Shown piece by piece: positions 15-50,858 of a stretch of 63,609 nucleotides of DNA. Within the stretch, counting starts at the first letter, position 1. Every line of letters begins with the position of its first letter. The stretch is taken from NCBI GenBank assembly GCA_022763385.1, contig JALEGQ010000174.1, forward strand, positions 1 to 63,609. The letters run 5' to 3'. The notes beneath the pieces were generated by a model, which ran no database searches, was not told the DNA's origin, and was given only the letters and a program-made list of their open reading frames with translations. Made by a program: the position numbers and the translations under genes. The DNA comes from a bacterium (GTDB taxonomy: Bacteria; Bdellovibrionota_C; UBA2361; RFPC01).

Positions 15-773
15 AGAATCGATGATCTTTCTCTTATAATTTATATCAAAGAAAAACAACGACCGTTTGATGTCATCCTTGAGCGGTGTATCAACCACTC
101 TCGCGCCCTTCACACGCTGAAGTACTATAATGACTGTGGCACCTACACGGTAAATAGCTTTGATACGGCGCAGATCTGTGGTGACAAGCTGCTCACCTCT
201 CTTGCACTGGCTCAAGCAGACATTCCGATTCCGGACAATCTTGTCGCGTATACGGAAGACTCGGCCATCGAAGCGATCGAGCGCATGGGGTATCCCGTGG
301 TGCTAAAGCCCGCGGTGGGGTCGTGGGGACGTCTTCTCGCGAAGATTAACGACCGTGATGCAGCCGAAGCGATTCTCGAGCACAAGAAGATCCTCGGCTC
401 GTATCACCACTCAGTGTATTACATCCAGCGGTATATTGAGACCGGAGGACGTGATGTCCGAGCTTTTGTGATCGGAGGTGAGTGTATAGCGGCGATATCC
501 CGCACGTCGCCCCATTGGATTACGAACACGGCACGAGGGGGAGTCGCTGCCAAGTATGAGGTAACGAATGAGCTTGCGGATCTCTGCTCTCGAGCTTCGG
601 CTGCGGTCGCTGGAGATATCGTCGCCGTAGATCTCTTTGAAACTCTTGATGGATTGCTCGTGAACGAAGTGAACTACACGATGGAGTTTCGAAACTCTAT
701 TGAGACCACCGGGGTGAATATTCCGCAGGAGGTCGTCCGTTACGTTGTTTCAAAAGCTAGGGAAGTGTCGTGA
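15..773 (+). CDS. lysX: ATP-grasp ligase of the LysX/ArgX (RimK) family; 5' end unresolved (first ATG at 285, in-frame TAA at 12-14)
   Basis: ORF 285..773 ([23 protein letters not shown]-grasp core). LysX-like sequence ([21 protein letters not shown]...[18 protein letters not shown]) continues in frame upstream to nt 15 with no ATG/GTG/TTG. First gene of a lysXYZJK-ordered cluster. Confidence 0.7.
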
Positions 774-1816
774 AAGAGGTCAGCATTATCGGAGCATCGG
801 GATACACTGGAGGAGAAGCGCTTCGCCTCTTGCTCTCTCATCCAGAGTTTACGGTAAAGCAGGTCACCAGTGAGCGTCTTGCCGGAAAACCCGTCACGAC
901 TGTGCACCCAAACCTGAGGGGGCTTACCGAGCTGAAATTCTCTTCGAGTGCGGAGCTGGAGCCGTGTGATGTGCTCTTTATCGGCTTGCCGCATGGAAAG
1001 AGTCAGTCGCGGTTTGAGGAGTTCTCTTCGAAGGCGGAGATCCTCTGCGACCTCGGTTCTGATTTCAGAATTCCTAATCCAGAACGCTACGCAGAGTATT
1101 ACGGGGAGCCGCACCGTGCGCCTGAGCTACTTCCGCTCTTCACCTATGCGGTCCCGGAGGTCAATCGTGAGCAGATTCGCTCCGGGGGACATCTGTCAGG
1201 AGCAGGGTGTATCGCTACCTGCAGCCTGACCTCGTTATATCCACTGTTTGCAAGTGGCATCGTACGAGAGCAACGGGTCTTTATCGATGCAAAGATCGGC
1301 TCAAGTGCCTCGGGCGCAACGCCGGGAGCGGCGAGTCATCACCCCGAGCGGGCGGGATGCCTCCGTTCCTTTAAACCGACGGCTCACCGTCATACGGCCG
1401 AGCTGCTCACCTACCTTCCGGAAGCAAACGGTCTCGCCCCGGAGGTCTACCTGAGTGCCACTGCCACGGCAGAAGTTCGGGGGATACTGACAACTGCACA
1501 GCTTTTTGTGGAGGCTTCCGTAACAGAGGCTGATATCTGGGGCGTCTATCGGGAGTACTACGGTCAAGAGCCGTTTGTCCGTATCGTGAAGGACCGGCGG
1601 AGTATGTATCGGTACCCGGAGCCGAAGATCGTCAAGGGAACCAATTTTATTGATATCGGTTTTGAACGAGAGTCGGGGACAGATCGCCTCGTGGTGCTCG
1701 GCGCTATTGATAACCTGGTGAAGGGATCTGCTGGGAACGTAATTCAAGCATTGAATATTCGGTATGGGTTTCCAGAACGACTCGGCTTAGAGTTTGCTGG
1801 GTTACACCCGGTATAA
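770..1816 (+). CDS. lysY: N-acetyl-gamma-glutamyl-phosphate reductase family ([LysW]-aminoadipate-6-phosphate reductase LysY / ArgC)
   Basis: 348 aa. N-terminal GASGYTGGE Rossmann motif and active-site Cys context SGAGCIATC. 4-nt overlap with the upstream gene. Confidence 0.8.
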
Positions 1817-1830
1817 GGGAGACACGCGAG

Positions 1831-2694
1831 ATGGCATCACCGGTATATGTCGTAAAGGTGGGAGGGTCTGCGGGAATCCGCGATGATGAACTTCTTGATG
1901 AATTAGCAGCACGTCACGCCAATGGAGAACGGTTTCTCCTCGTGCACGGGGGCTCGGATGAAACGAATGAGGTGGCAAGGCAGCTTGGGCATCCCCCTCG
2001 CTTTGTGACCTCGGTATCTGGATTTGAAAGTCGATATACGGACCGCAAGACCCTCGAGATCTTCTCTATGGTCTACTGTGGACGGAGAAACAAGTCGCTC
2101 GTTGAGGGGCTCCAGCAGCGTGGTGTGAACGCCGTTGGTCTCAGTGGTGCTGATGGGCGGATCTTTGAAGGAGAGATGAAGGGGGCCCTCAAGATTATTG
2201 AAGGGGGAAAGAAGAAGGTGCTCCGAGGGGACTATTCGGGAAAGATTACCCGGGTGCATACAGAGCTGCTGGAACTGCTCCTCGAAGGAGGATTCTTTCC
2301 GGTGCTTACTCCTCCGGCTATTGATCGAGAGAGCTCTTGCATGATGAATGTGGACGGGGACCGAGCGGCTGCCGAATTAGCAAAGGCGTTCTCTGCGCGG
2401 GCACTCATTATTCTCTCTACGGTACCGGGTCTCCTCCGAGATCTTGATGGCGACCACAGTGATCCGACCAATCTTATCTCTTCGATCGATCTCTCGTCAG
2501 CCGAGGACCCGTATAGTGCGGCAGAGGGGAGGATGAAGAAGAAGATCATGGGAGCTCAAGAGGCGATTGATGGGGGAGTCGAGAAGGTGATCCTGTCGAC
2601 GGCAAATCGTCCCAATCCGATACGGAGTGCCCTTGAGGGGGCTGGTACGACGATATTCCGGAGTGCAGTGGCCGCAGAGGAGTCTCGGATATGA
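1831..2694 (+). CDS. lysZ: Amino-acid kinase family ([LysW]-aminoadipate kinase LysZ / acetylglutamate kinase ArgB)
   Basis: 287 aa. VVKVGGS start and the LVHGGS motif typical of AAK-family kinases. Position in the cluster fits. Confidence 0.75.
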   Translation: MASPVYVVKVGGSAGIRDDELLDELAARHANGERFLLVHGGSDETNEVARQLGHPPRFVTSVSGFESRYTDRKTLEIFSMVYCGRRNKSLVEGLQQRGVNAVGLSGADGRIFEGEMKGALKIIEGGKKKVLRGDYSGKITRVHTELLELLLEGGFFPVLTPPAIDRESSCMMNVDGDRAAAELAKAFSARALIILSTVPGLLRDLDGDHSDPTNLISSIDLSSAEDPYSAAEGRMKKKIMGAQEAIDGGVEKVILSTANRPNPIRSALEGAGTTIFRSAVAAEESRI

Positions 2695-3872
2695 CTCACG
2701 AAGCCTCAACGGTGTTATCTGAATGTGCTCACACTGCTGGTACCTATCGCAAGCGAGACGTTGCTATCGTACGAGGAGAAGGAGTCTGGGTGTATGATGA
2801 AGCGGGGCGGAAGTACCTCGATGCTATCGGAGGGATCGGGGCAAACGTTCTTGGGCACCGACACCCGTATTTTTCAACAGAGCTCAAGAGTCAGATCGAT
2901 CTCACCCTCTCTGTTCCTGAGCTCCTCTGTAACAACACTCGAGCTGAGTATCAGTCAGCACTCCTCTCACTCTTTCCCCCCTGCTATGACCGAGTCTTTC
3001 TCTGTAACGGAGGAGCGGAAGCGAATGAAGCCGCGCTCAAGTTTGCACGGGTGCTCTCACAGAAAACACCGCTTGTTGCTCTCAACTTTGGCTATCACGG
3101 AAAAACATTAGGCGCACTCAGTGTTACTCACAACCCGAAGTACCGAGAGCCGTTTGAGCCGCTCTACCATCCCGTCCACTTTCTTCCCCAGGGGAATATC
3201 GAACGGCTGAATGAGGTCTTCGATGGAGACCCCCCTGCGGCTTTTATCTTTGAGGGAGTTCAGGGAGAAGGCGGTGTTCGAACACCGGAAAGTGAGTACG
3301 TGAAAACAGTTTCTCACCGAGTCCAAGAAGGCGGCGGTTATGTGATCGCTGACGAAGTACAGTGTGGTTTTGGAAGAACTGGAAGGTGGTGGGGATTTGA
3401 GGCCCACGGGGTCGAGCCGGATTTTGTAGTGCTCGGGAAGGCGATCGGAAATGGGGTTCCGCTTTCTGCGGTGGTACTTCATAAACGGGTCGGTCAACTT
3501 CCGCCGCTCGCTCACACCACGACCTTTGGTGGAAATCCGCTCTCCTGCCGAGCTGGACTCGCCACGATTGAGGTGATGAAGCAGGAGAGTCTTGTTGAGC
3601 AGGCGGCACAGCGGGGAGAACAGTTTCGTCACCTCCTCCGTGAAGCTCGTCTTTCGAACGTACGAGAGCTGCGTGGTGAGGGATTGATGATCGGTGTTGA
3701 GCTGAAGGAGCGAGCCGGGAGATATCTCGCTGAGCTCCAGCAGGAGGGGGTACTCGCCTTGCTGGCCGGACCGCGGGTTCTGAGAGCACTCCCTCCGTAC
3801 GTCATCTCAGAAGACGAGATGAACTTCCTTGCTGGACGGTTTATAGAGGTACTTCGGAATGAGAAGAACTGA
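2691..3872 (+). CDS. lysJ: Class-III PLP aminotransferase (LysJ / ArgD, acetylornithine aminotransferase family)
   Basis: 393 aa. DEVQCGFGRTG and LGKAIGNG (PLP lysine) motifs. 4-nt overlap with lysZ. Confidence 0.8.
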   Translation: MTHEASTVLSECAHTAGTYRKRDVAIVRGEGVWVYDEAGRKYLDAIGGIGANVLGHRHPYFSTELKSQIDLTLSVPELLCNNTRAEYQSALLSLFPPCYDRVFLCNGGAEANEAALKFARVLSQKTPLVALNFGYHGKTLGALSVTHNPKYREPFEPLYHPVHFLPQGNIERLNEVFDGDPPAAFIFEGVQGEGGVRTPESEYVKTVSHRVQEGGGYVIADEVQCGFGRTGRWWGFEAHGVEPDFVVLGKAIGNGVPLSAVVLHKRVGQLPPLAHTTTFGGNPLSCRAGLATIEVMKQESLVEQAAQRGEQFRHLLREARLSNVRELRGEGLMIGVELKERAGRYLAELQQEGVLALLAGPRVLRALPPYVISEDEMNFLAGRFIEVLRNEKN

Positions 3873-4968
3873 GCAGGAATCGATCGCTTTTCTGGAGTCG
3901 CTGGTAAGGTGTTTTTCTCCGTCGACGAAAGAAGAAGAGGTCTCCCATCTCGCCGTACAGGAGATGAAGGATATCGGCTTTGCCGAGGCGTGGCGAGATG
4001 AAGTGGGAAACGCCATCGGTATCTGGGGCGAACGAGGACAGCCGACATACTTCCTGGTCGGGCATATCGACACCGTTCCTGGAGAGATTCCAGTCCGGCG
4101 AGAGGAGCTCTCCGGCGAAGAGGTACTTTTTGGCCGCGGCTCGGTCGATGCCAAGGGGTCATTTGCTACCTTCGTCCAGGCGGTCGGTCGTCTTCCCAAG
4201 GATCTTCCGGTGTGTTTTATAGTGGTCGGCGCGGTCGAGGAAGAGGTGGCGAGTTCAAAGGGTGCTCGACACCTCCTGACTCAGTTCGCCGAGCCCGAGG
4301 GGGTCATCATTGGAGAGCCCTCTGGAGGAGATGGTATCACCCTTGGCTACAAGGGGCGCCTGCTCCACGAGCTCTCTGCCAAAAGAGCGATGACCCATAG
4401 CGCTTCTCCCTTTGCGACCATTGGAGACCTTCTCTCTCTCTGGGGGGCGAGGGTGCACACCCTTGCTCGCGAGAGTGCGTCGCCGAAAGCAGGGTTTCGT
4501 TCTCTTGATGCCACCATTCAACAGCTTCAGGTAACGAACGATGGCTTTACGGAAGAGGGGAAGATCCAGTTCGGTTTTCGCATTCCTCCTTCCCTCACTC
4601 CTGATGAGGTAGAGCGCCACCTCCGAGAAGAGTTCCCACGGTGGAGAGCGCAGTTTCCTGCTGATGAGACTCAAGAGCTCGAGATACATTTTTTTCAACG
4701 AGAAGTTGCCGCCGAATATTCCAAGAAATCCTCTCTCGCGGGAGCCTTCCGAAAAGCGATCCGAAGTCAGGGACTCACTCCCCGACACGTCGTAAAAACC
4801 GGCACCTCCGACATGAACGTCCTCGCCGCCGGGTGGAACTGTCCCATGGTCGCCTACGGCCCCGGCGACTCCGACCTTGATCACACCCCCAACGAGCATC
4901 TCTCCCTTCAGGACTACTGCACCGCCATTCGCGTACTCGAACAGGTGCTCCTCAACCTTTCACCGTGA
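3859..4968 (+). CDS. lysK: M20 metallopeptidase-family deacylase ([LysW]-lysine hydrolase LysK / ArgE-like)
   Basis: 369 aa. VGHIDTVPG, GRGSVDAKG and GAVEEE metal-ligand motifs. Last gene of the cluster. Confidence 0.7.
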   Translation: MRRTEQESIAFLESLVRCFSPSTKEEEVSHLAVQEMKDIGFAEAWRDEVGNAIGIWGERGQPTYFLVGHIDTVPGEIPVRREELSGEEVLFGRGSVDAKGSFATFVQAVGRLPKDLPVCFIVVGAVEEEVASSKGARHLLTQFAEPEGVIIGEPSGGDGITLGYKGRLLHELSAKRAMTHSASPFATIGDLLSLWGARVHTLARESASPKAGFRSLDATIQQLQVTNDGFTEEGKIQFGFRIPPSLTPDEVERHLREEFPRWRAQFPADETQELEIHFFQREVAAEYSKKSSLAGAFRKAIRSQGLTPRHVVKTGTSDMNVLAAGWNCPMVAYGPGDSDLDHTPNEHLSLQDYCTAIRVLEQVLLNLSP

Positions 4969-21118: not shown

Positions 21119-21937
21119 TCAGCTTTTCAGGGGGAAGAGGCAGAGCGCCGTCGGGACCTCATCCCGGCCAACGATATCGATTCCGCCGAACCCCGGTCGA
21201 GCGCTTGGGATATCGCTCGTCATATAAAGCTGGGTAGAGCCGCCCCCATCAAAATTCAAGGCCTCCTGGCACCCGATCGCCGGTGATGAGAGTAGGTCCG
21301 CGAGTTCCCGAAGCGTTGCTCCTCGGAAGGAGGAAGAGGTGGCAAAGAGGAGGAATTCCTTGGGGGAGATAAGGCAGATGCCGCTCCTTCGCGAGAGGCT
21401 CCCCCCGTCCAACTGTCGCCCCAGGGAGCGCCCTCCCGAGACCAGCATCGGACCAGCCTGTACTGCTTCGAGCCCCCTCTCATGAGGTGCTTCTTCCCGG
21501 GAAGAGATCGTCAGCTGATCTCGGTGAACTCTGAGTACTCCATTCAGGAGAGAGCCCCCCCGGTGCATGGCGCGGTGCTCAACGCCTCTGCTGACGACAA
21601 GTCCGAGGGGGAGCCCCTTGGTGTCAAAGAAGTTCGCGTTGATGCAGAGCGAGGCTCCGGTGCGCTCTGCAAAGGTGAGACTCTTGAGTTTCCTTCGTTG
21701 AAACGAGGAGGCGCGCACGACTCGGGGGCGAAAAGATGAAAGAGAGGTTCGGACAAGGGTGAGCTCTCCTGGAAAGAGCCCGGATTCAAGTGAGACGATG
21801 CCGATCTCGACTCCAGTGCCTACTCGCGTCCACCGAACTGCCGGATTCGAGGAACGGTTCGGTGGTGACGCGGCCTCGTTCTGTTCTGCTGCCTGTACGA
21901 ACAGCGGAAGCAGTGTGCAGCAGAGAAGAGAGCGCAT
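21119..21937 (-). CDS. Secreted phosphodiester glycosidase family protein (DUF2233/NAGPA-like)
   Basis: LCINANFFD, GPMLVSGG and LNFDGGGSTQLY motifs. Start set at the MRSLLCCTLLPLFVQAAE signal peptide (21937). Confidence 0.6.
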   Translation of the reverse strand: MRSLLCCTLLPLFVQAAEQNEAASPPNRSSNPAVRWTRVGTGVEIGIVSLESGLFPGELTLVRTSLSSFRPRVVRASSFQRRKLKSLTFAERTGASLCINANFFDTKGLPLGLVVSRGVEHRAMHRGGSLLNGVLRVHRDQLTISSREEAPHERGLEAVQAGPMLVSGGRSLGRQLDGGSLSRRSGICLISPKEFLLFATSSSFRGATLRELADLLSSPAIGCQEALNFDGGGSTQLYMTSDIPSARPGFGGIDIVGRDEVPTALCLFPLKS

Positions 21938-43966: not shown

Positions 43967-44872
43967 TTATCGCCTCGCAAAGGAGATATACTTTCGGAAA
44001 TCCTCCTTCTTGCCCCGAACAGTATCGAAGTAGAGTTGCTTGGTCATCTGTGAAACGGGGCCGATGGATCCGCTTCCGAGGATTTTGCCGTCGATAGATC
44101 TGATCGGAGTCACCTCTGCTGCGGTTCCGGTAAAAAAGGCTTCGTCGGCTTCCAGGGCTTCCTCAAGAGAGATCTGCGCCTCTACCGTGGTATAGCCTTC
44201 TCCCTTGAGGAGCTCCATGACCGTCTCGCGGGTGATTCCTGCCAAAACATTCCCGAGGGGGGGCGTTTTTACGGTCCCACCCTTTACGAGAAAGAAGTTC
44301 TCCCCAGGTCCCTCGGCGATGTTGCCTTCGTAGTCGAGAAAAAGCGCCTCATGAAAGTCGGTACCGATGAGCTCTCGAACGGCGAGAATGCTATTGACAT
44401 AGTGCCCGCAGATCTTCGCATCAGCGACCGTTGATTTCGGATGGATTCGAATATAGGAGCTCACCTTCAGGTCTACCATCTCGTGCGGAAGATACGCTCC
44501 CCACGGCCAGCAGGCGATCATGACCTGGACCGGCGCATCGGTCGGATTGAGACCCATCTTGCCGTATCCATAAAAGGCGAGGGGGCGGATATAGCAGTGT
44601 TCGAGCTCGTTGCGGCGTACGAGCTCAAGCGTCGCCTCTTCTAGCTCTTCAACGGAAAATGGGATCTCCATCCCAATCGCCTTGGTAGAGTAAAAGAGCC
44701 GCTCAAAGTGTTCTTGTACCCGGAAAAGAGCGGGCCCCTCCGGAGTTTCATAGGCCCGTAACCCCTCAAAGGCCCCTGAACCGTAGTGAAGAGCGTGGGT
44801 AAGCGCGTGCACCTTTGCCTCTTCCCACAGAACAAACTCGCCATCCATCCAGATATACTTTGTCGGTTCCAT
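43967..44872 (-). CDS. ilvE: Branched-chain amino acid aminotransferase (class IV)
   Basis: Start set at MEPTKYIWMDGEFV (44872). HYGSGAFEGLRAY, GENFFLVKGG and GITR motifs. Last gene of the leu operon. Confidence 0.85.
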   Translation of the reverse strand: MEPTKYIWMDGEFVLWEEAKVHALTHALHYGSGAFEGLRAYETPEGPALFRVQEHFERLFYSTKAIGMEIPFSVEELEEATLELVRRNELEHCYIRPLAFYGYGKMGLNPTDAPVQVMIACWPWGAYLPHEMVDLKVSSYIRIHPKSTVADAKICGHYVNSILAVRELIGTDFHEALFLDYEGNIAEGPGENFFLVKGGTVKTPPLGNVLAGITRETVMELLKGEGYTTVEAQISLEEALEADEAFFTGTAAEVTPIRSIDGKILGSGSIGPVSQMTKQLYFDTVRGKKEDFRKYISFARR

Positions 44873-44891
44873 CTCGCTCCTCTCTTGCTTG

Positions 44892-45992
44892 CTATGATGT
44901 GCGAAGAATTCGTTTTCTGACCTCAGCAGCAAAGGCCGCCGTTGAGATCGCTACTTCGCCGGTGCACGCGATATCAGCCGTGCGAAAGCCATCGTCGAGC
45001 ACACCCTCCACAGCAGTTTCAATGGTCTTCGCCTCTTCATCAAGACCAAATGAGTAGCGGAGCAGGAGGGCAACACAGAGAATCTGGGCAGTTGGGTTGG
45101 CCACGCCCTGGCCAGCGATATCAGGGGCACTCCCTCCGGAAGGTTCGTACATTCCAAACCCCTTCTCATTAAAACTTGCCGATGGAGTGAGTCCGAGAGA
45201 TCCGGGGAGAACTGCCGCGGTATCCGAGAGGATATCGCCAAACATATTTGAGGTGACGATCGTATCGAACTGCCCGGGATTCTGAACGAGCTGCATCGCA
45301 CAGTTGTCAACGAGCATGTGAGCAAGGGAGACATCTGGATACACCGTTCCGACCTCTTCCATCACCGCTCGCCACAACTTTGAGGTATCGAGAACATTCG
45401 CTTTGTCGACCGAGGTGAGCTGCTTCTTCCGTTGCTGAGCAGCGCGAAACGCGGTGTGGGCGATCCGACGAATCTCCTCTTCGGTGTACCTTGCTTCGTC
45501 GCGAGCAACTCGTACACCAGCCTCTTCCTTCGTTTCGTGGGTTCCAAAGTAGAGATCCCCCAGGAGTTCACGAACGATCAAGAGATCAATCCCCTCGCCG
45601 ATGATGGACTTCTTGAGTGGGCACCGCTCTTGAAGCGCCTGGTACACCCGGGCCGGACGAAAGTTCGCGTGAAAGCAACACCGTTGCCGAAGACCGAGCA
45701 GGGAGTTCTTCTCACAGTCTCGCCATTTTTCGGCGGTTGATTCTTCAATCGGTCCACCAACCGAGCCAAAGAGAATGGCGTCACAGTTCGCAATGAGCGT
45801 TTGGGTCTCTTCCGGAAAATGTTCCTGATGGAGTTCGTAGGCAGCTCCTCCGATCAGCCCTTCGCGCACCTCAAAGGAAAGATCGAAGCGTTCTCCGATG
45901 GCAGTGAGGATCTCAAGCGCTGCCCTCATGACCTCGGGGCCGATTCCATCTCCGGGGAGCGCTGCTATCCGTCGAGTGGTCGTTTTACTCAT
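44892..45992 (-). CDS. leuB: 3-isopropylmalate dehydrogenase
   Basis: Start set at MSKTTTRRIAALPGDGIGPEV (45992, 8-nt overlap with leuD). NMFGDILSD motif. Confidence 0.85.
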   Translation of the reverse strand: MSKTTTRRIAALPGDGIGPEVMRAALEILTAIGERFDLSFEVREGLIGGAAYELHQEHFPEETQTLIANCDAILFGSVGGPIEESTAEKWRDCEKNSLLGLRQRCCFHANFRPARVYQALQERCPLKKSIIGEGIDLLIVRELLGDLYFGTHETKEEAGVRVARDEARYTEEEIRRIAHTAFRAAQQRKKQLTSVDKANVLDTSKLWRAVMEEVGTVYPDVSLAHMLVDNCAMQLVQNPGQFDTIVTSNMFGDILSDTAAVLPGSLGLTPSASFNEKGFGMYEPSGGSAPDIAGQGVANPTAQILCVALLLRYSFGLDEEAKTIETAVEGVLDDGFRTADIACTGEVAISTAAFAAEVRKRILRTS

Positions 45993-46617
45993 CTGGTCCT
46001 CCGTGATGATTTGGAATACGGGTATCAAAGAAGGAGCTCTTCTCGTGTTGCTCCCGAAAGAGCGTGATCTCTTCTTCCCGGTTGAGGAGATAGTCGAGAT
46101 CGTCCATTCCGGCGAGGAGGCACTCTTTGCGGAATGGGTCGTAGGGAAAGAAAAACTTTTCTCCATCCTGAAGGGCAACCGTTTGGTTCGTGAGGTCTAT
46201 GGTGAGCTCAGGAAGCGGTGTGATTTCGGGGCTCGTCTGCTGGAGTAACGAATTTACCACCTCTTCGGGGAGTTCTACGAGAAGCAACCCATTCTTCCCA
46301 CTGTTGCTGTGGAAGATATCTGCAAAGGAAGGAGCGATAACTGCCTCGTATCCAGCACTCATCAAGGCCCACACGGCGTGTTCTCGTGAAGAGCCACACC
46401 CAAAGTTCTCTCGTGTTACGAGAATCTTTGCATTCCGGTAGGGTGGGAGAAACGGAGGGAACTCAGGGTCCTCATCGCGTAGCCGGCGAAAAAGGTTCTC
46501 ACCGTACCCTTCACGACTGATACTCGTGAGGAACTGCGCGGGGATGATCATGTCAGTATCAACATCCCGTATCGGAAGTGGGGCGTAATGAGAGCGAAGA
46601 GTCGTGAAGGTCTTCAT
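45985..46617 (-). CDS. leuD: 3-isopropylmalate dehydratase small subunit
   Basis: 210 aa. DTDMIIPAQFL and GCGSSREHA motifs. Confidence 0.85.
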   Translation of the reverse strand: MKTFTTLRSHYAPLPIRDVDTDMIIPAQFLTSISREGYGENLFRRLRDEDPEFPPFLPPYRNAKILVTRENFGCGSSREHAVWALMSAGYEAVIAPSFADIFHSNSGKNGLLLVELPEEVVNSLLQQTSPEITPLPELTIDLTNQTVALQDGEKFFFPYDPFRKECLLAGMDDLDYLLNREEEITLFREQHEKSSFFDTRIPNHHGGPDE

Positions 46618-46622
46618 GGTAG

Positions 46623-48017
46623 TTATATCTCCTCAGCTGTGGTGATCGAGCCCGCGATGGCACTGGCTGCTACGGTTGCGGGTGAAGCGAGATGTGTTCG
46701 ACTTCCCGCGCCCTGCCGCCCAACAAAATTTCTGTTTGATGAGCTGATACACCGTGCTCCTGAAGGAACCGTATCATCGTTCATACTGAGGCACATGGAG
46801 CATCCTGGAAGACGAAAGTCTGCTCCGGCTGTTTCAAAGATAGAATGCAGTCCTTCTGCGATCGCCTGCTCTCGAACGCGTTCTGACCCTGGCACGATAT
46901 AGAGGGTCACCGCGGGGTTCACCTTTTTCCCTCGAAGCACCTCGGCTGCAACCCGGAGATCTTCAATTCTTCCATTCGTGCACGATCCGATAAAGGCCCA
47001 GTCCACTGGAGTTTTGGCGAGAGGTGTTCCTTCCTCCAGGCCGATGTACTGAAGAGCCTGCGCAGCAGAGCTTCGCTCTTCCTCGGGAAGCTGACGGAGG
47101 AAGGGGATATGCTCTCGTATCTCTATCGCCTGTCCCGGGTTCGTTCCCCAGGTCGCCATCGGTGAGAGCGACTCGAGCGAGATCTCAACCTCGGCATCAA
47201 AAGAGGCTCCCTCATCGCTTCGAAAGCTCTGCCAGTGGGCGACCGCCCGTTCCCAGTCGCTATCCTGTGGAGCAAACCGTCTCCCGCGAATGTAGTGGGC
47301 TGTGGTTTCATCTGGAGCAATCAGTCCTGCTCGTGCACCACACTCAATACTCATATTGCAGAGCGTCATCCGTTCTTCCATCGACATCTGAGAGATGGCT
47401 TCACCGGTATACTCAATCACATGGCCCGTAGCACCGCCGATGCCAAGCTCTTGGATAAGGCGGAGGATGATATCCTTTGCATACACGCCGCGAGGGGGAG
47501 AGCCCGAGAAACGGACACGCATGGTCCTCGGTTTCTGCTGCAAGAGACACCCCGTGGCGAGCACATGGCCGACCTCACTCGTGCCCACACCGAAGGCGAG
47601 GGCACCAAAAGCTCCATGTGTTGAGGTATGTGAATCTCCGCACACGATCGTCATCCCGGGCTGAGTTGCTCCGAGCTCCGGCCCGACGACGTGCACGATT
47701 CCCTGATCTCCGCTATCAAAGTCATAGAACTCGAGGCCGTACTGTGCGGCATTTTGACGGAGTGTTTCGACCTGGGTACGAGCCGCGTCATCGGCGATCT
47801 GAAGTCGATTCTTTCGCGTGGGAATGCTGTGATCGATCGTGGCGAGGATCCGCTCCGGGTGGCGGGGGGAGAGCCCCCTTCGCTCAAGCTCTTGGAAGGC
47901 CTGGGCCGAAGTCACCTCGTGCATGAGGAGGAGGTCGATGGCAAAGACTGCTGGATGTCCCTCTTTTTGGGTGACAACGTGAGCATCCCAGATCTTATCA
48001 ACGATGTTTCGTTTCAT
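46623..48017 (-). CDS. leuC: 3-isopropylmalate dehydratase large subunit
   Basis: 464 aa. Aconitase-family motifs VCGDSHTSTHGAFG and IGSCTNGR. Confidence 0.9.
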   Translation of the reverse strand: MKRNIVDKIWDAHVVTQKEGHPAVFAIDLLLMHEVTSAQAFQELERRGLSPRHPERILATIDHSIPTRKNRLQIADDAARTQVETLRQNAAQYGLEFYDFDSGDQGIVHVVGPELGATQPGMTIVCGDSHTSTHGAFGALAFGVGTSEVGHVLATGCLLQQKPRTMRVRFSGSPPRGVYAKDIILRLIQELGIGGATGHVIEYTGEAISQMSMEERMTLCNMSIECGARAGLIAPDETTAHYIRGRRFAPQDSDWERAVAHWQSFRSDEGASFDAEVEISLESLSPMATWGTNPGQAIEIREHIPFLRQLPEEERSSAAQALQYIGLEEGTPLAKTPVDWAFIGSCTNGRIEDLRVAAEVLRGKKVNPAVTLYIVPGSERVREQAIAEGLHSIFETAGADFRLPGCSMCLSMNDDTVPSGARCISSSNRNFVGRQGAGSRTHLASPATVAASAIAGSITTAEEI

Positions 48018-49621
48018 GATTCTCCTCCCCGACGAAAGTAGTGCTCGACATAGGCGGTGTTCGTGGCATCGATCAGCGCCTTCATGGCTGAGATCTCAAT
48101 GTCTCGGTCGCTTCCCCGACCAACATACTCATTCCCATCACCTCCCGTCAGCACGATCTTTGAGTTGCTCGTAGCAGCGATGCCCTCGCCTTCAGATTGG
48201 CTCTGGTGGCTTGCGATCTGATATCCCGGGAAGCGGCGGTCGATAGCGGCCTTGAGTGCTGCAAGGGCCGAGTCTTCTCCCTCATATGATTCGCTGAGCG
48301 GGCCTTCATGATCAAAAAACTGCCCCTCGAGGTGCACCTCTGAGTTCTTCGCATTCCGAGAGTAATCGAACGATGTGATGGAGATCGGTTGCCGGTATGC
48401 CCGGTAGGCGGTGAGGAGTTCGGCGTCAGTAATGCCCTTCCTCCGGTCAGCGTAGCGATCCTTGATGAACTGAGTGATCTCCGCTTTCTCCTCATCAGGA
48501 CAGGAGTAGCCTGCTTCCTCGATCAGCGATTGGGCGTGATTGCTCCCACTGAGGGGGCCGAAGAGGAGAGAGACCTTGCTTCCGGTCTCTGCGGGGTCAA
48601 ACGGTTGGTAGACGTGAATATTATTGAGAATGGCATTGGTATGCCCACCGGAGGAGTGGCGGGCCGCATTCTCGCCAGAGATCGGCCAGTGGGGTTGCCG
48701 CGGAAGCATGTGTCTGCTCACAAAGTTAGAGATCCCCTGGAGGTATTTCGTGTTGGCATTGGTAAAGAACTTGGAGCATTCCTTCTCTGAAGGCGATGAA
48801 GAAAAGCTGCGAATCGCCATGATACACTGCTCAAGAGCAGCGTTTCCGGCCCGTTCTCCGACACCGTTGATGCACCCTTCGATCTGTCGTGCGGGCCCAT
48901 CAAAAACACCGTGAAGCGAGTTCGCCACCGCGAGCCCGAAGTCGTTGTGGCAGTGAACAGACCAGGTGAGCGAAAGCTCGGGATACTCTTCCCGAAGAAT
49001 CGCAGCGTGTCTGTTCATCTGAGCGACAAAGTAGTTATCGCCCTGGATGTAGCACGCCGAGCCAATGGTATCTGGACAGTTCAGAATACGGGCTCCAGCT
49101 TCTACCGCTGCGCGGAGGAGATCCGTGACGAAATCAAAGTTCTCGCCCTGCCGAGAGTACCCCTCGGGACTGAACTGCACCTCGAGTCCCGCCTCTGCCG
49201 CACGGCTGATGTAGTCTGAGGTTCGTTTCAGGAGGGTGCTGTGGTCCTCAGCGAGTGAACCGAGGGACGCTTGCATTAGCAGGGGATCAACGGGAACATA
49301 GGTATGGAGGCGGGCTCGCCCCCGAGAGATCGCAGGTTCAAGGGCAGCTATTGTGGTGTCGATCTGCTCCGAACGGAGTTGGCACAGTCCGGCGATGGTG
49401 GTGTGGTGATTTTCATCCGTCGCAAGCTCCTCGGTGATCGTGTGGACGATCTCAAAATCAGTTGAGCTTGCCGAAGGAAAACCGGCTTCGAGGATATCAA
49501 TCCCAAGTTGCGCCGCTAGCCGCGCGTACTCGAGATTTCTCTCAAAGCTCATGCCCGCACCCGGACACTGCTGTCCGTCACGGAGGGTAGTATCAAAAAG
49601 GGCGATCTGTTCCTGTGTCAT
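48014..49621 (-). CDS. leuA: 2-isopropylmalate synthase (LeuA/CimA family)
   Basis: 535 aa. LFDTTLRDGQQ and HCHNDFGLAVANS. C-terminal regulatory domain present. ATGA overlap with leuC. Confidence 0.85.
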   Translation of the reverse strand: MTQEQIALFDTTLRDGQQCPGAGMSFERNLEYARLAAQLGIDILEAGFPSASSTDFEIVHTITEELATDENHHTTIAGLCQLRSEQIDTTIAALEPAISRGRARLHTYVPVDPLLMQASLGSLAEDHSTLLKRTSDYISRAAEAGLEVQFSPEGYSRQGENFDFVTDLLRAAVEAGARILNCPDTIGSACYIQGDNYFVAQMNRHAAILREEYPELSLTWSVHCHNDFGLAVANSLHGVFDGPARQIEGCINGVGERAGNAALEQCIMAIRSFSSSPSEKECSKFFTNANTKYLQGISNFVSRHMLPRQPHWPISGENAARHSSGGHTNAILNNIHVYQPFDPAETGSKVSLLFGPLSGSNHAQSLIEEAGYSCPDEEKAEITQFIKDRYADRRKGITDAELLTAYRAYRQPISITSFDYSRNAKNSEVHLEGQFFDHEGPLSESYEGEDSALAALKAAIDRRFPGYQIASHQSQSEGEGIAATSNSKIVLTGGDGNEYVGRGSDRDIEISAMKALIDATNTAYVEHYFRRGGES

Positions 49622-49650
49622 ATCACGCTACTTCACCGGTTATTGTCATC

Positions 49651-49686
49651 AAAAAAGCAAAAAAAAAGCCCTGCTTGAGCAGAGCT
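49651..49686 (-). terminator. Attenuator terminator of the leu leader
   Basis: Minus strand: AGCUCUGC-UCAA-GCAGGGCU (8 bp including one G.U) followed by U9-GC-U6, ending 30 nt before the leuA ATG. Confidence 0.7.
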
Positions 49687-49726
49687 TCTTCGCTGTTGAT
49701 TTCCAACAGAGCACTGCGTTCGTCTC

Positions 49727-49789
49727 CTATCCGGAGAGGAGGAGTACGAGGAGCAGCAGCAGTGACTTTTTTGAAGAATCGTTCATCAT
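49727..49789 (-). CDS. leu operon leader peptide, 20 aa with 8 Leu (absent from the ORF track)
   Basis: Hand translation: ATG ATG AAC GAT TCT TCA AAA AAG TCA CTG CTG CTG CTC CTC GTA CTC CTC CTC TCC GGA TAG = MMNDSSKKSLLLLLVLLLSG. Confidence 0.7.
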   Translation of the reverse strand: MMNDSSKKSLLLLLVLLLSG

Positions 49790-49865
49790 GGCAGTAGAAC
49801 GAAAAAGGGGATCTCAGTCAAGGACCGCACTTGCAAGAGGTTCCTACAGATGGCAGGAAGAGCAG

Positions 49866-50858
49866 ATGGAGCAGGTATATACAGACCGTGACGTCACCGA
49901 GGGACTTCTCGACGGAAAAACGGTGGCGATTCTCGGGTATGGGTCCCAGGGAAAGGCCCAGGCGAAGAACTTCCGCGACAGTGGGGTGCGTACGGTCCTC
50001 GGCCTCCGTCCTGATGGCCCCTCTGCCAGAGAGGCAGAAGCCGATGGATTCACCGTCCTTCCGTTCCGAGAAGCAGCCGTGCAGGGAGATATCATTCACT
50101 TCCTTCTCCCTGATGAAGTCCACGGCGCGGTGTACGCTGAAATTGAAGATGCCGTGACAGCAGGCAAAATGCTCTCCTTTAGCCACGGCTTCTCCATTCA
50201 CTTTCAGTTGATAGTTCCTCCGGCGGGAGTTGACGTGATTCTCGTTTCTCCAAAGGCTCATGCGTCCGCCGTCCGAGAGCGCTATCTTGGCGGATTCGGA
50301 GTACCGGCCGTGCTCGCCGTTCACGCAGATTCCTCTGGTGAGGCGTTTGAGAAAGCGCTTGCTCTGGCACAGGCAAATGGCAACACGAGATCGGGATGTT
50401 ATCGGACGACCTTCCGAGAGGAGACCGAGGCAGATCTCTTTTCGGAGCAGAACGTGATCTGCGGTGGGGTAACGAGCCTTATTCGAGCGGGATTTGATGT
50501 GCTCGTTGAAGCAGGATACTCCCCCGAGGTCGCGTATTTCGAGTGTGTCTATGAGATGAAGATTATCGTTGATCTGATCGAAAAACACGGCATTCACGGA
50601 ATGTCTGAGCGGATCTCTCCAACGGCTCGATTTGGCCAGTTCGCTCAGGGAGATCGGGTGATTACCGAGCATACGAAAGAGGCGATGCGAGATCAGCTCA
50701 AGCGGATCCAGTCAGGTGAGTTTGTGCGTGAGTGGATTGAAGAGGAGTGTGAGCAGGCCGGCGGAGAGAATCTCGCACGCCGATTAGCTGATTGTCACGA
50801 GTGGGAGGTCGAGCGGGTTGGAAGAGCGATTCGTGCTCGTATGGCGAACAGGGGTTAG
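49866..50858 (+). CDS. ilvC: Ketol-acid reductoisomerase (class I)
   Basis: The ATG at 49866 is preceded by AGGAAG. MEQVYTDRDV..GKTVAILGYGSQGKAQAKN. The listed ORF start (49434) is an upstream read-through. Confidence 0.9.
   Translation: MEQVYTDRDVTEGLLDGKTVAILGYGSQGKAQAKNFRDSGVRTVLGLRPDGPSAREAEADGFTVLPFREAAVQGDIIHFLLPDEVHGAVYAEIEDAVTAGKMLSFSHGFSIHFQLIVPPAGVDVILVSPKAHASAVRERYLGGFGVPAVLAVHADSSGEAFEKALALAQANGNTRSGCYRTTFREETEADLFSEQNVICGGVTSLIRAGFDVLVEAGYSPEVAYFECVYEMKIIVDLIEKHGIHGMSERISPTARFGQFAQGDRVITEHTKEAMRDQLKRIQSGEFVREWIEEECEQAGGENLARRLADCHEWEVERVGRAIRARMANRG

Follow-up and report, generated by a model that had tools for sequence, protein, structure and literature searches.

A candidate leucine-responsive attenuator ahead of leuA in an uncultured Bdellovibrionota lineage

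The leuA leader and the genes around it

The spacer between the divergent genes ilvC and leuA was analyzed in a bacterium of the GTDB lineage Bdellovibrionota_C; UBA2361; RFPC01 (assembly GCA_022763385.1). The window is the whole stretch of DNA under study, 63,609 nucleotides of contig JALEGQ010000174.1 (positions 1 to 63,609), and coordinates are window positions unless another genome is named. The minus strand of the spacer holds the leader of leuA, in which a short open reading frame (ORF) with a run of Leu codons is followed by competing RNA helices and an intrinsic terminator. The leader is a candidate leucine attenuator of the leuA-leuC-leuD-leuB-ilvE operon. Its features are the following.

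49816..49821, minus strand: predicted -35 box TTGACT, part of the top-scoring -35/-10 pair in the 60 nt that precede the ORF
49793..49798, minus strand: predicted -10 box TCTACT, separated from the -35 box by a 17-nt spacer and ending 3 nt before the first ATG and 6 nt before the second (49786)
49727..49789, minus strand: leader-peptide ORF MMNDSSKKSLLLLLVLLLSG plus stop, 20 codons, with ATG at 49789 and TAG at 49729-49727
49736..49762, minus strand: putative regulatory codon block, eight Leu codons (CTG x3, CTC x5) and one Val in nine codons; this is region 1, the 5' strand of helix H1
49762-49710, minus strand: predicted helix H1, Leu codons paired with region 2, -20.5 kcal/mol, the most stable helix
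49723..49737, minus strand: hairpin UCUCC-GGAUA-GGAGA over the stop codon, the apical part of H1
49710..49717, minus strand: region 2, GCAGUGCU, partner of the Leu codons (in H1) or of the terminator 5' arm (in the antiterminator)
49717-49679, minus strand: predicted antiterminator, -13.5 kcal/mol
49693..49709, minus strand: central hairpin CUGUUG-GAAAU-CAACAG, the tip of the extended antiterminator
49651..49691, minus strand: intrinsic terminator, a stem at 49691-49662 followed by a U9GCU6 tract that ends at 49651
49691-49662, minus strand: terminator helix, -16.6 kcal/mol

The initial annotation placed a Leu-rich ORF of 20 codons at 49789..49727, and every element of it was found there in the minus-strand reading. 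The codons are ATG ATG AAC GAT TCT TCA AAA AAG TCA CTG CTG CTG CTC CTC GTA CTC CTC CTC TCC GGA TAG, which puts a cluster of end-product codons, 8 Leu in 9, inside a short 5'-leader ORF. The frame and the Leu block stand as described; the start probably does not, since the second ATG at 49786 is the likely one and would shorten the ORF to 19 codons. By chance, a genome read in six frames should contain about one run with 8 or more Leu in 9 codons, so the run by itself proves little. Rare Leu codons as the sensor were ruled out by the codon usage of the genome, in which CTC accounts for 47% and CTG for 15% of Leu codons.

The position of the promoter bears on how the ORF would be translated. A TTGAC(A/T) motif is found at the same place in most of the homologous leaders described below. 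At 8 of 12 leader loci, exactly 6 nt separate the end of the best promoter match from an in-frame ATG (conservative binomial ~5e-8), and the gap between the -10 box and the ATG is 5-6 nt in five leaders from metagenomes. The leader ATGs lack an upstream Shine-Dalgarno sequence (CCCTTTTTCGTTCTACTGCC-ATGATG), in contrast to ilvC, which has AGGAAG. With a 6-nt gap, transcription would normally begin at the A of the ATG, so a start at about 49786 is predicted. Judged from this spacing, the leader mRNA is probably leaderless and would give a 19-residue peptide, MNDSSKKSLLLLLVLLLSG.

Similar spacing is seen at other genes. Across the whole genome (G000), strong TTGACA/TATAAT-type matches upstream of ordinary long ORFs cluster at a distance of 5-9 nt from the ATG, where 11 of the 17 matches within 0-30 nt lie; examples are C149 (-) 15542, C170 (-) 19183, and C23 (-) 50256. 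This pattern suggests that leaderless mRNAs are in use for some normal genes of this genome.

The leader precedes leuA, and the rest of the operon behind leuA spans 43967..48017 on the minus strand. The genes at the locus are the following.

48014..49621, minus strand: leuA, LeuA-like 2-isopropylmalate synthase (IPMS) and first structural gene, 535 aa, with HMGL-like, HCS_D2, and LeuA_dimer domains
46623-48017, minus strand: leuC, NCBIfam 637-700 bits, above cut-off
45985-46617, minus strand: leuD, NCBIfam, above cut-off
~44892-45980, minus strand: leuB, TIGR00169, 426 bits against a cut-off of 353
43967-44932, minus strand: ilvE, NCBIfam, above the equivalog cut-off
49866..50858, plus strand: ilvC, ketol-acid reductoisomerase, divergent; NF004017, 423.6 bits, profile positions 1-326, aligned from residue 1

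The downstream genes thus make the amino acid that the leader would sense.

The 3.07-Mb assembly was scanned on both strands for short ORFs with an amino-acid run and a terminator within 80-90 nt, and a relaxed scan added long ORFs downstream. The leuA leader is the only Leu match in the genome under the strict and the relaxed criteria alike. It is also the only match of any kind that combines a strong stem with a cognate biosynthetic gene. No convincing His, Trp, Thr, Phe, or Ile/Val leader attenuator was found elsewhere in the genome; the other matches have weak stems of 5-8 bp and no cognate genes.

The region 49300-50100 was compared with Rfam 15 using cmscan with permissive filters and E <= 10. 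Neither Leu_leader (RF00512) nor T-box (RF00230) nor any riboswitch gave a match at this threshold. Among families of leader type, Phe_leader scored best with 20.9 bits (gathering score 55), and its alignment covered only the terminator. Matches to OrzO-P, istR, asX2, Phe_leader, and Thr_leader were rejected; all are far under their gathering scores and align the terminator only. The initial annotation had recognized the layout of the enterobacterial leuL leader. The attenuation layout holds up, whereas membership of the leuL RNA family does not, there being no Rfam match.

Alternative folds and a proposed attenuation mechanism

An intrinsic terminator separates the leader ORF from the first structural gene. 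The terminator core, AGCUCUGC-UCAA-GCAGGGCU, lengthens to a 13-bp stem, GAAGAAGCUCUGC-UCAA-GCAGGGCUUUUUU, and a consensus terminator scan returned a 13-bp stem with the DNA form GAAGAAGCTCTGC-TCAA-GCAGGGCTTTTTT. A role as the end of an upstream gene was ruled out: ilvC is divergent and no co-directional gene ends upstream, so the terminator lies within a 5' leader. The U-tract ends 29 nt before the leuA ATG (49621), which leaves no space for a separate promoter. The fold of the 179-nt leader has a free energy of -58.5 kcal/mol (z = -3.3), and none of 200 shuffled sequences was as stable.

Region 2, GCAGUGCU, and the terminator 3' arm, GCAGGGCU, have 7 of 8 positions in common. The pairing of GCAGUGCU with the terminator 5' arm AGCUCUGC at 7 of 8 positions, put forward in the initial annotation as a candidate antiterminator, is real, and taken alone it is only marginally better than in shuffled sequences. 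In the antiterminator, a U-U mismatch separates the paired segments GCAG/CUGC and GCU/AGC, and a 6-nt bulge then leads to the CUGUUG/CAACAG hairpin, which forms the tip.

Constrained folding was used to place the competing helices in relation to the ribosome. The nascent RNA was ended before the terminator 3' arm, and 30 nt were masked as the ribosome. In the window leader, H1 formed when no ribosome was present. The proposed GCAGUGCU/AGCUCUGC antiterminator formed when the ribosome occupied Leu codons 1-5, and it was absent when the ribosome was at the stop codon. The predicted antiterminator is thus exclusive of the terminator and dependent on ribosome position in these folds. The mutually exclusive structures that the initial annotation had suggested looking for were obtained as three states: H1, the antiterminator, and the terminator.

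We conclude with high confidence that the element is a leucine-responsive, ribosome-mediated transcription attenuator of the leuA-leuC-leuD-leuB-ilvE operon. This is the ribosome-stalling reading of the initial annotation, and it draws its support from the downstream genes, from conserved leaders in relatives, and from the constrained folds. In the proposed mechanism, transcription from a sigma-70-type promoter (-35 at 49821-49816, -10 at 49798-49793) would start at or beside the second ATG at 49786. The mRNA would be leaderless, and a 70S ribosome would load on its 5'-terminal AUG. With Leu-tRNA in ample supply, the ribosome would pass the eight Leu codons to the UAG and shield the RNA as far as the beginning of region 2. 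After its release, the Leu codons would pair again with region 2 to form H1, leaving the terminator 5' arm free. The 13-bp terminator could then form, and RNA polymerase would stop in the U-tract, 29 nt short of leuA. Under a shortage of charged Leu-tRNA, the ribosome would stall on the early Leu codons and hold region 1. Region 2 and the central hairpin would then pair with the terminator 5' arm, no terminator would form, and the operon would be transcribed.

The geometry of this leader bears on the high-leucine state. A ribosome at the stop codon would cover only the first 1-3 bases of region 2, so termination at high leucine would depend mainly on H1 forming again. In the window copy, this re-formation is probably more important than direct masking by the ribosome.

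Conservation of the leader with a deep LeuA clade

A protein search found an orthologous LeuA in 11 of 40 relatives. A Leu-run mini-ORF followed by a GC hairpin and a U-tract lies upstream of leuA at locus L002, which belongs to the same genus (MTNSILLNLLLLLSR), and at L003, L004, L005, L007, and L012. In the window's order, leader and terminator precede the orthologous leuA at 7 of 12 loci. The pair is also present at 5 of 10 loci from named genomes whose LeuA falls in the same clade, Obscuribacterales/Melainabacteria among them (L013, L014, L015, L021, and L023). When one filter was applied to all loci, a leader was called at 12 of 22 clade loci, compared to at most 2 of about 64 control loci with a canonical leuA, both of them dubious. 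Metagenomes added 11 loci with 56-61% LeuA identity; the filter called six distinct leaders among them, and visual inspection another three. The conserved Leu-run mini-ORF that the initial annotation had proposed to look for in relatives is therefore present in many of them.

The LeuA proteins at these loci belong together. In named genomes, the clade at 50-62% identity takes in Obscuribacterales/Melainabacteria, Bdellovibrionales, and a few genomes labeled 'Gammaproteobacteria' or 'Pseudomonadota', whereas identity to canonical LeuA falls to 31-37%. The LeuA tree separates this clade from canonical LeuA with 100/100 support. The LeuA of the same-genus genome G001 is at 68% identity, and the metagenome scan returned none above 61%. 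A neighbor in the tree, L017, is labeled Bdellovibrionales, consistent with the Bdellovibrionota placement of the window. On the tree, leaders extend from the most basal member, L012, through a nested Melainabacteria subclade, a distribution that fits an old element with several losses.

The nesting of the Melainabacteria proteins is an observation of its own. The LeuA sequences of Melainabacteria/Obscuribacterales (L013, L014, L016, L021, and L023) lie inside the clade of the window's order with moderate support (80-85), and the leader architecture, with its probable leaderless start, is the same. This placement suggests that leuA and its attenuator were transferred as a unit between phyla.

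The leader peptides have only their Leu runs in common. Their length varies from 12 to 44 aa, as do the other residues and the Leu codons used (CTG, CTC, CTT, CTA, TTG, and TTA), which is expected if the codons and not the peptide are under selection. This variability bears on the proposal that the ORF is the gene of a small, hydrophobic, functional membrane peptide and has a promoter and terminator of its own, leuA being transcribed independently. A polar N-terminus followed by a hydrophobic Leu-rich core is indeed what a small membrane protein or a type I toxin looks like, and weak, chance-level Rfam matches to antitoxin RNAs cover the terminator (E 0.47-1.9). Those matches fall far below their gathering scores and touch nothing else, and a conserved product is hard to reconcile with peptides that share no more than Leu content. 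An independent leuA would need a promoter in the 29 nt between the U-tract and its ATG, and an unrelated peptide gene would not be expected to remain tied to this LeuA clade across phyla. We regard a membrane peptide as highly improbable.

Two leaders depart from the common design. Loci L020 (a Marinicella metagenome-assembled genome, MAG) and L022 (a Gammaproteobacteria MAG) have leader ORFs of 39-42 aa whose N-terminus is rich in Gln, His, and Asn. The ORFs end in Leu runs (…ALLSLLLLIRI and …LLKTLSLLLILINL), no recognizable intrinsic terminator follows them, and they may be a terminator-less variant.

The same two loci speak for a device that attenuates although termination is not the (only) regulated step, with ribosome position tuning Rho access or the initiation of leuA translation. 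Long ORFs that end in Leu runs without an intrinsic terminator suit that scheme, as does the weak leuA ribosome-binding site in the window. The window itself has a textbook 13-bp terminator with a U9 tract, however, and its competing helix is aimed at the terminator 5' arm rather than at the leuA start region. Of the rivals weighed here we consider this the least probable, with very little chance of being right.

Conservation of the pairing was assessed with alignment-free tests. Constrained folds were carried out on 12 leaders, and all 12 formed an antiterminator that engaged 5-10 nt of the terminator 5' arm when the ribosome was placed on early Leu codons. Its partner strand lies at or shortly past the stop codon in these leaders and is a near-copy of the terminator 3' arm; in L015, the partner strand is GACAGGGCC and the 3' arm is GACAGGGCC. 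Region 2 starts 9 nt after the stop codon in the window, compared to -1 to 0 in most Melainabacteria-type leaders. In L002, the hairpin over the stop codon has the counterpart UCCC-GAUA-GGGA, and a central hairpin occurs at the same position. Shuffling was then applied to the stretch that separates the last Leu codon from the terminator, and the probabilities were Fisher-combined over the 12 leaders. The combined p values were 1.9e-7 for the copy of the 3' arm and 5.7e-12 for duplex energy.

The sensed codons change with the operon. In family f3, leuA stands right behind ilvC without a leader of its own, the operon is ilvB-ilvN-ilvC-leuA, and the leader ORF lies before ilvB. Its runs read GLLLVVVLLT in G028 (L112 3863-4075) and VLLVVVLL in G008 (L113 544-790), and a strong terminator, GCCCCCGCACCG...CGGTGCGGGGGC plus a T-run, comes after the leader ORF. 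The passage from a Leu run to a Leu/Val run when genes of the valine pathway join the operon would be hard to explain except by codon-based sensing. The end of the f3 leader ORF, CGGTGCGGGCC, is itself a near-copy of the terminator 3' arm.

The codon evidence also addresses the possibility that a protein, a tRNA, or a metabolite works the switch. The mini-ORF would then be untranslated, and the Leu stretch would be the pyrimidine-rich strand of an anti-antiterminator helix. H1 is the most stable helix (-20.5 kcal/mol) and requires a strand rich in CUC and CUG whether or not it is coding, and leuA leader elements of Actinobacteria did not behave as classical attenuators (PMC1262725). A strand selected for pairing alone would not account for an ATG-to-stop frame with a Leu run that is retained at 18 or more distinct loci while the nucleotides, the Leu codons, and the ORF length vary. 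It would also not account for a stop codon in fixed relation to the antiterminator strand, or for the run of Leu plus Val where ilvBN joins the operon. The T-box and riboswitch families gave no match in the window leader even at E <= 10. An untranslated switch is therefore very unlikely.

Several observations weigh against a ribosome-mediated attenuator in the window. Its antiterminator is weak, with 7 of 8 pairs and a central U-U mismatch. The window leader alone is marginal in the shuffle test; 86 of 2000 shuffles matched its 3'-arm copy (p ~0.04) and 215 of 2000 its duplex energy (p ~0.11). The distance of 9 nt from the stop codon to region 2 leaves all but the first 1-3 bases outside a terminating ribosome, and the Leu codons of the leader are common types, not rare ones. 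The same-genus loci L010 and L011 (G002 and G003) keep the divergent ilvC-leuA arrangement yet are without a leader. Their LeuA is fast-evolving (52% identity), and the ~270-nt ilvC-leuA spacer has neither a Leu ORF nor a terminator; we treat them as cases of loss or replacement. Finally, the leuA and ilvB leaders of Streptomyces coelicolor have similar features, and upon mutation they reportedly did not act as classical attenuators (PMC1262725), so sequence features by themselves can mislead.

The identity of the LeuA-like protein was also examined. The protein reaches none of the curated LeuA equivalog cut-offs, and its best NCBIfam match is NF002086 at 299.8 bits against 532. It does have HMGL-like and HCS_D2 domains together with LeuA_dimer, the allosteric domain. 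Its closest solved structures are all IPMS (139-177 bits), compared to 88 bits for homocitrate synthase. These findings, the Leu leader, and the cut-offs passed by LeuC, LeuD, and LeuB give good support to the view in the initial annotation that this is a genuine leucine operon and not the homocitrate branch. The Leu-codon sensor, and its Leu/Val version in ilvBNC-leuA operons, argues that the deep LeuA clade makes 2-isopropylmalate for leucine.

The LysW cluster lies about 45 kb from the leu operon, with LysX, ArgC/LysY, LysZ, LysJ, and LysK at window positions 51-4968. The LysW-LysX-ArgC/LysY-LysZ-LysJ-LysK cluster is divided between two contig ends, and LysW is at the end of C168 (G000 21175-21327, L093/L094). 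The LeuA-like gene is the sole gene of the LeuA/HCS/CimA family in the 86%-complete assembly, so the 2-aminoadipate of the LysW cluster is without an assigned source, unless the cluster makes ornithine/arginine instead. The LeuA-like protein may have a second role, or a homocitrate synthase may lie in the missing part of the assembly.

Comparison with known leader systems

The mechanism is an ordinary one. What the leader adds is a well-supported, conserved Leu attenuator that has no Rfam family and is tied to a deep LeuA clade shared by two phyla. In the literature searched, no paper on Bdellovibrio, Bdellovibrionota, Melainabacteria, or Vampirovibrio also deals with leader peptides or attenuation. 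Candidate Leu/Ile/Val leaders have been described in Actinobacteria and Firmicutes (PMC1262725, PMC5794164).

A broader proposal, to which we give an even chance, is that these leaders are a distinct, uncatalogued family of leaderless Leu attenuators. The family would have traveled with the deep LeuA clade through an uncultured Bdellovibrionota order, Melainabacteria/Obscuribacterales, and a few Gammaproteobacteria-labeled MAGs. The ribosome would load on the 5'-terminal AUG as the transcript emerges, and in most members the copy of the 3' arm lies right at the stop codon, which means that the antiterminator would be masked directly by a ribosome terminating there. If true, this two-state logic would be more compact than the enterobacterial four-region model. 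The leader would also provide a functional assignment for a LeuA-like protein that fails every curated LeuA cut-off. It would extend leader-peptide attenuation to an uncultured Bdellovibrionota lineage and to the non-photosynthetic Melainabacteria, and, judging from the conserved distance from the -10 box to the ATG, leaderless leader peptides would be expected outside Actinobacteria as well. The textbook mechanism is unchanged.

Leader-peptide attenuation of the leu operons of enterobacteria is well established, and leuL contains four Leu codons, mostly the rare CUA. The window leader and the enterobacterial leuL (Leu_leader, RF00512) have in common a short ORF with a Leu cluster, exclusive 1:2, 2:3, and 3:4 helices, a terminator just before leuA, and an operon that makes the sensed amino acid. 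They differ in that there is no sequence or structure homology between them. The window leader has eight common Leu codons, no Shine-Dalgarno sequence, and probably a leaderless start; an extra central hairpin caps its antiterminator, and its LeuA comes from a deep, separate clade.

The actinobacterial LEU element works through a pseudoknot between the Leu run and the leuA Shine-Dalgarno sequence and has no terminator (PMC1262725). It resembles the window leader in two respects: an upstream ORF with a run of Leu codons stands before leuA, and those codons are engaged in RNA pairing. In the window, the Leu run pairs with 49727-49710 and not with the leuA start region, and the output is a strong terminator, so the pseudoknot architecture that defines the LEU element is not the one found here.

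The leaderless leaders of Actinobacteria offer a close parallel for the predicted 5' end. The ilvB, leu, and trp leaders of Corynebacterium are leaderless (PMC5784534, PMC11857589), the transcription start site of the ilvB leader having been mapped (PMC5784534), and the ORFs of mycobacterial poly-Cys attenuators are leaderless as well (bioRxiv 10.1101/834739; PMC4633059). These leaders come from other phyla and are unrelated in sequence, and the leaderless start in the window is predicted from promoter spacing rather than from a mapped start site. In these leaders, as is predicted for the window leader, the ORF begins at the 5' end of the transcript and its regulatory codons control the downstream biosynthetic genes. 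The Corynebacterium glutamicum ilvBNC leader has been described by a three-hairpin model (PMC11857589), and its anti-antiterminator, antiterminator, and terminator hairpins resemble the layout of H1, antiterminator, and terminator in the window.

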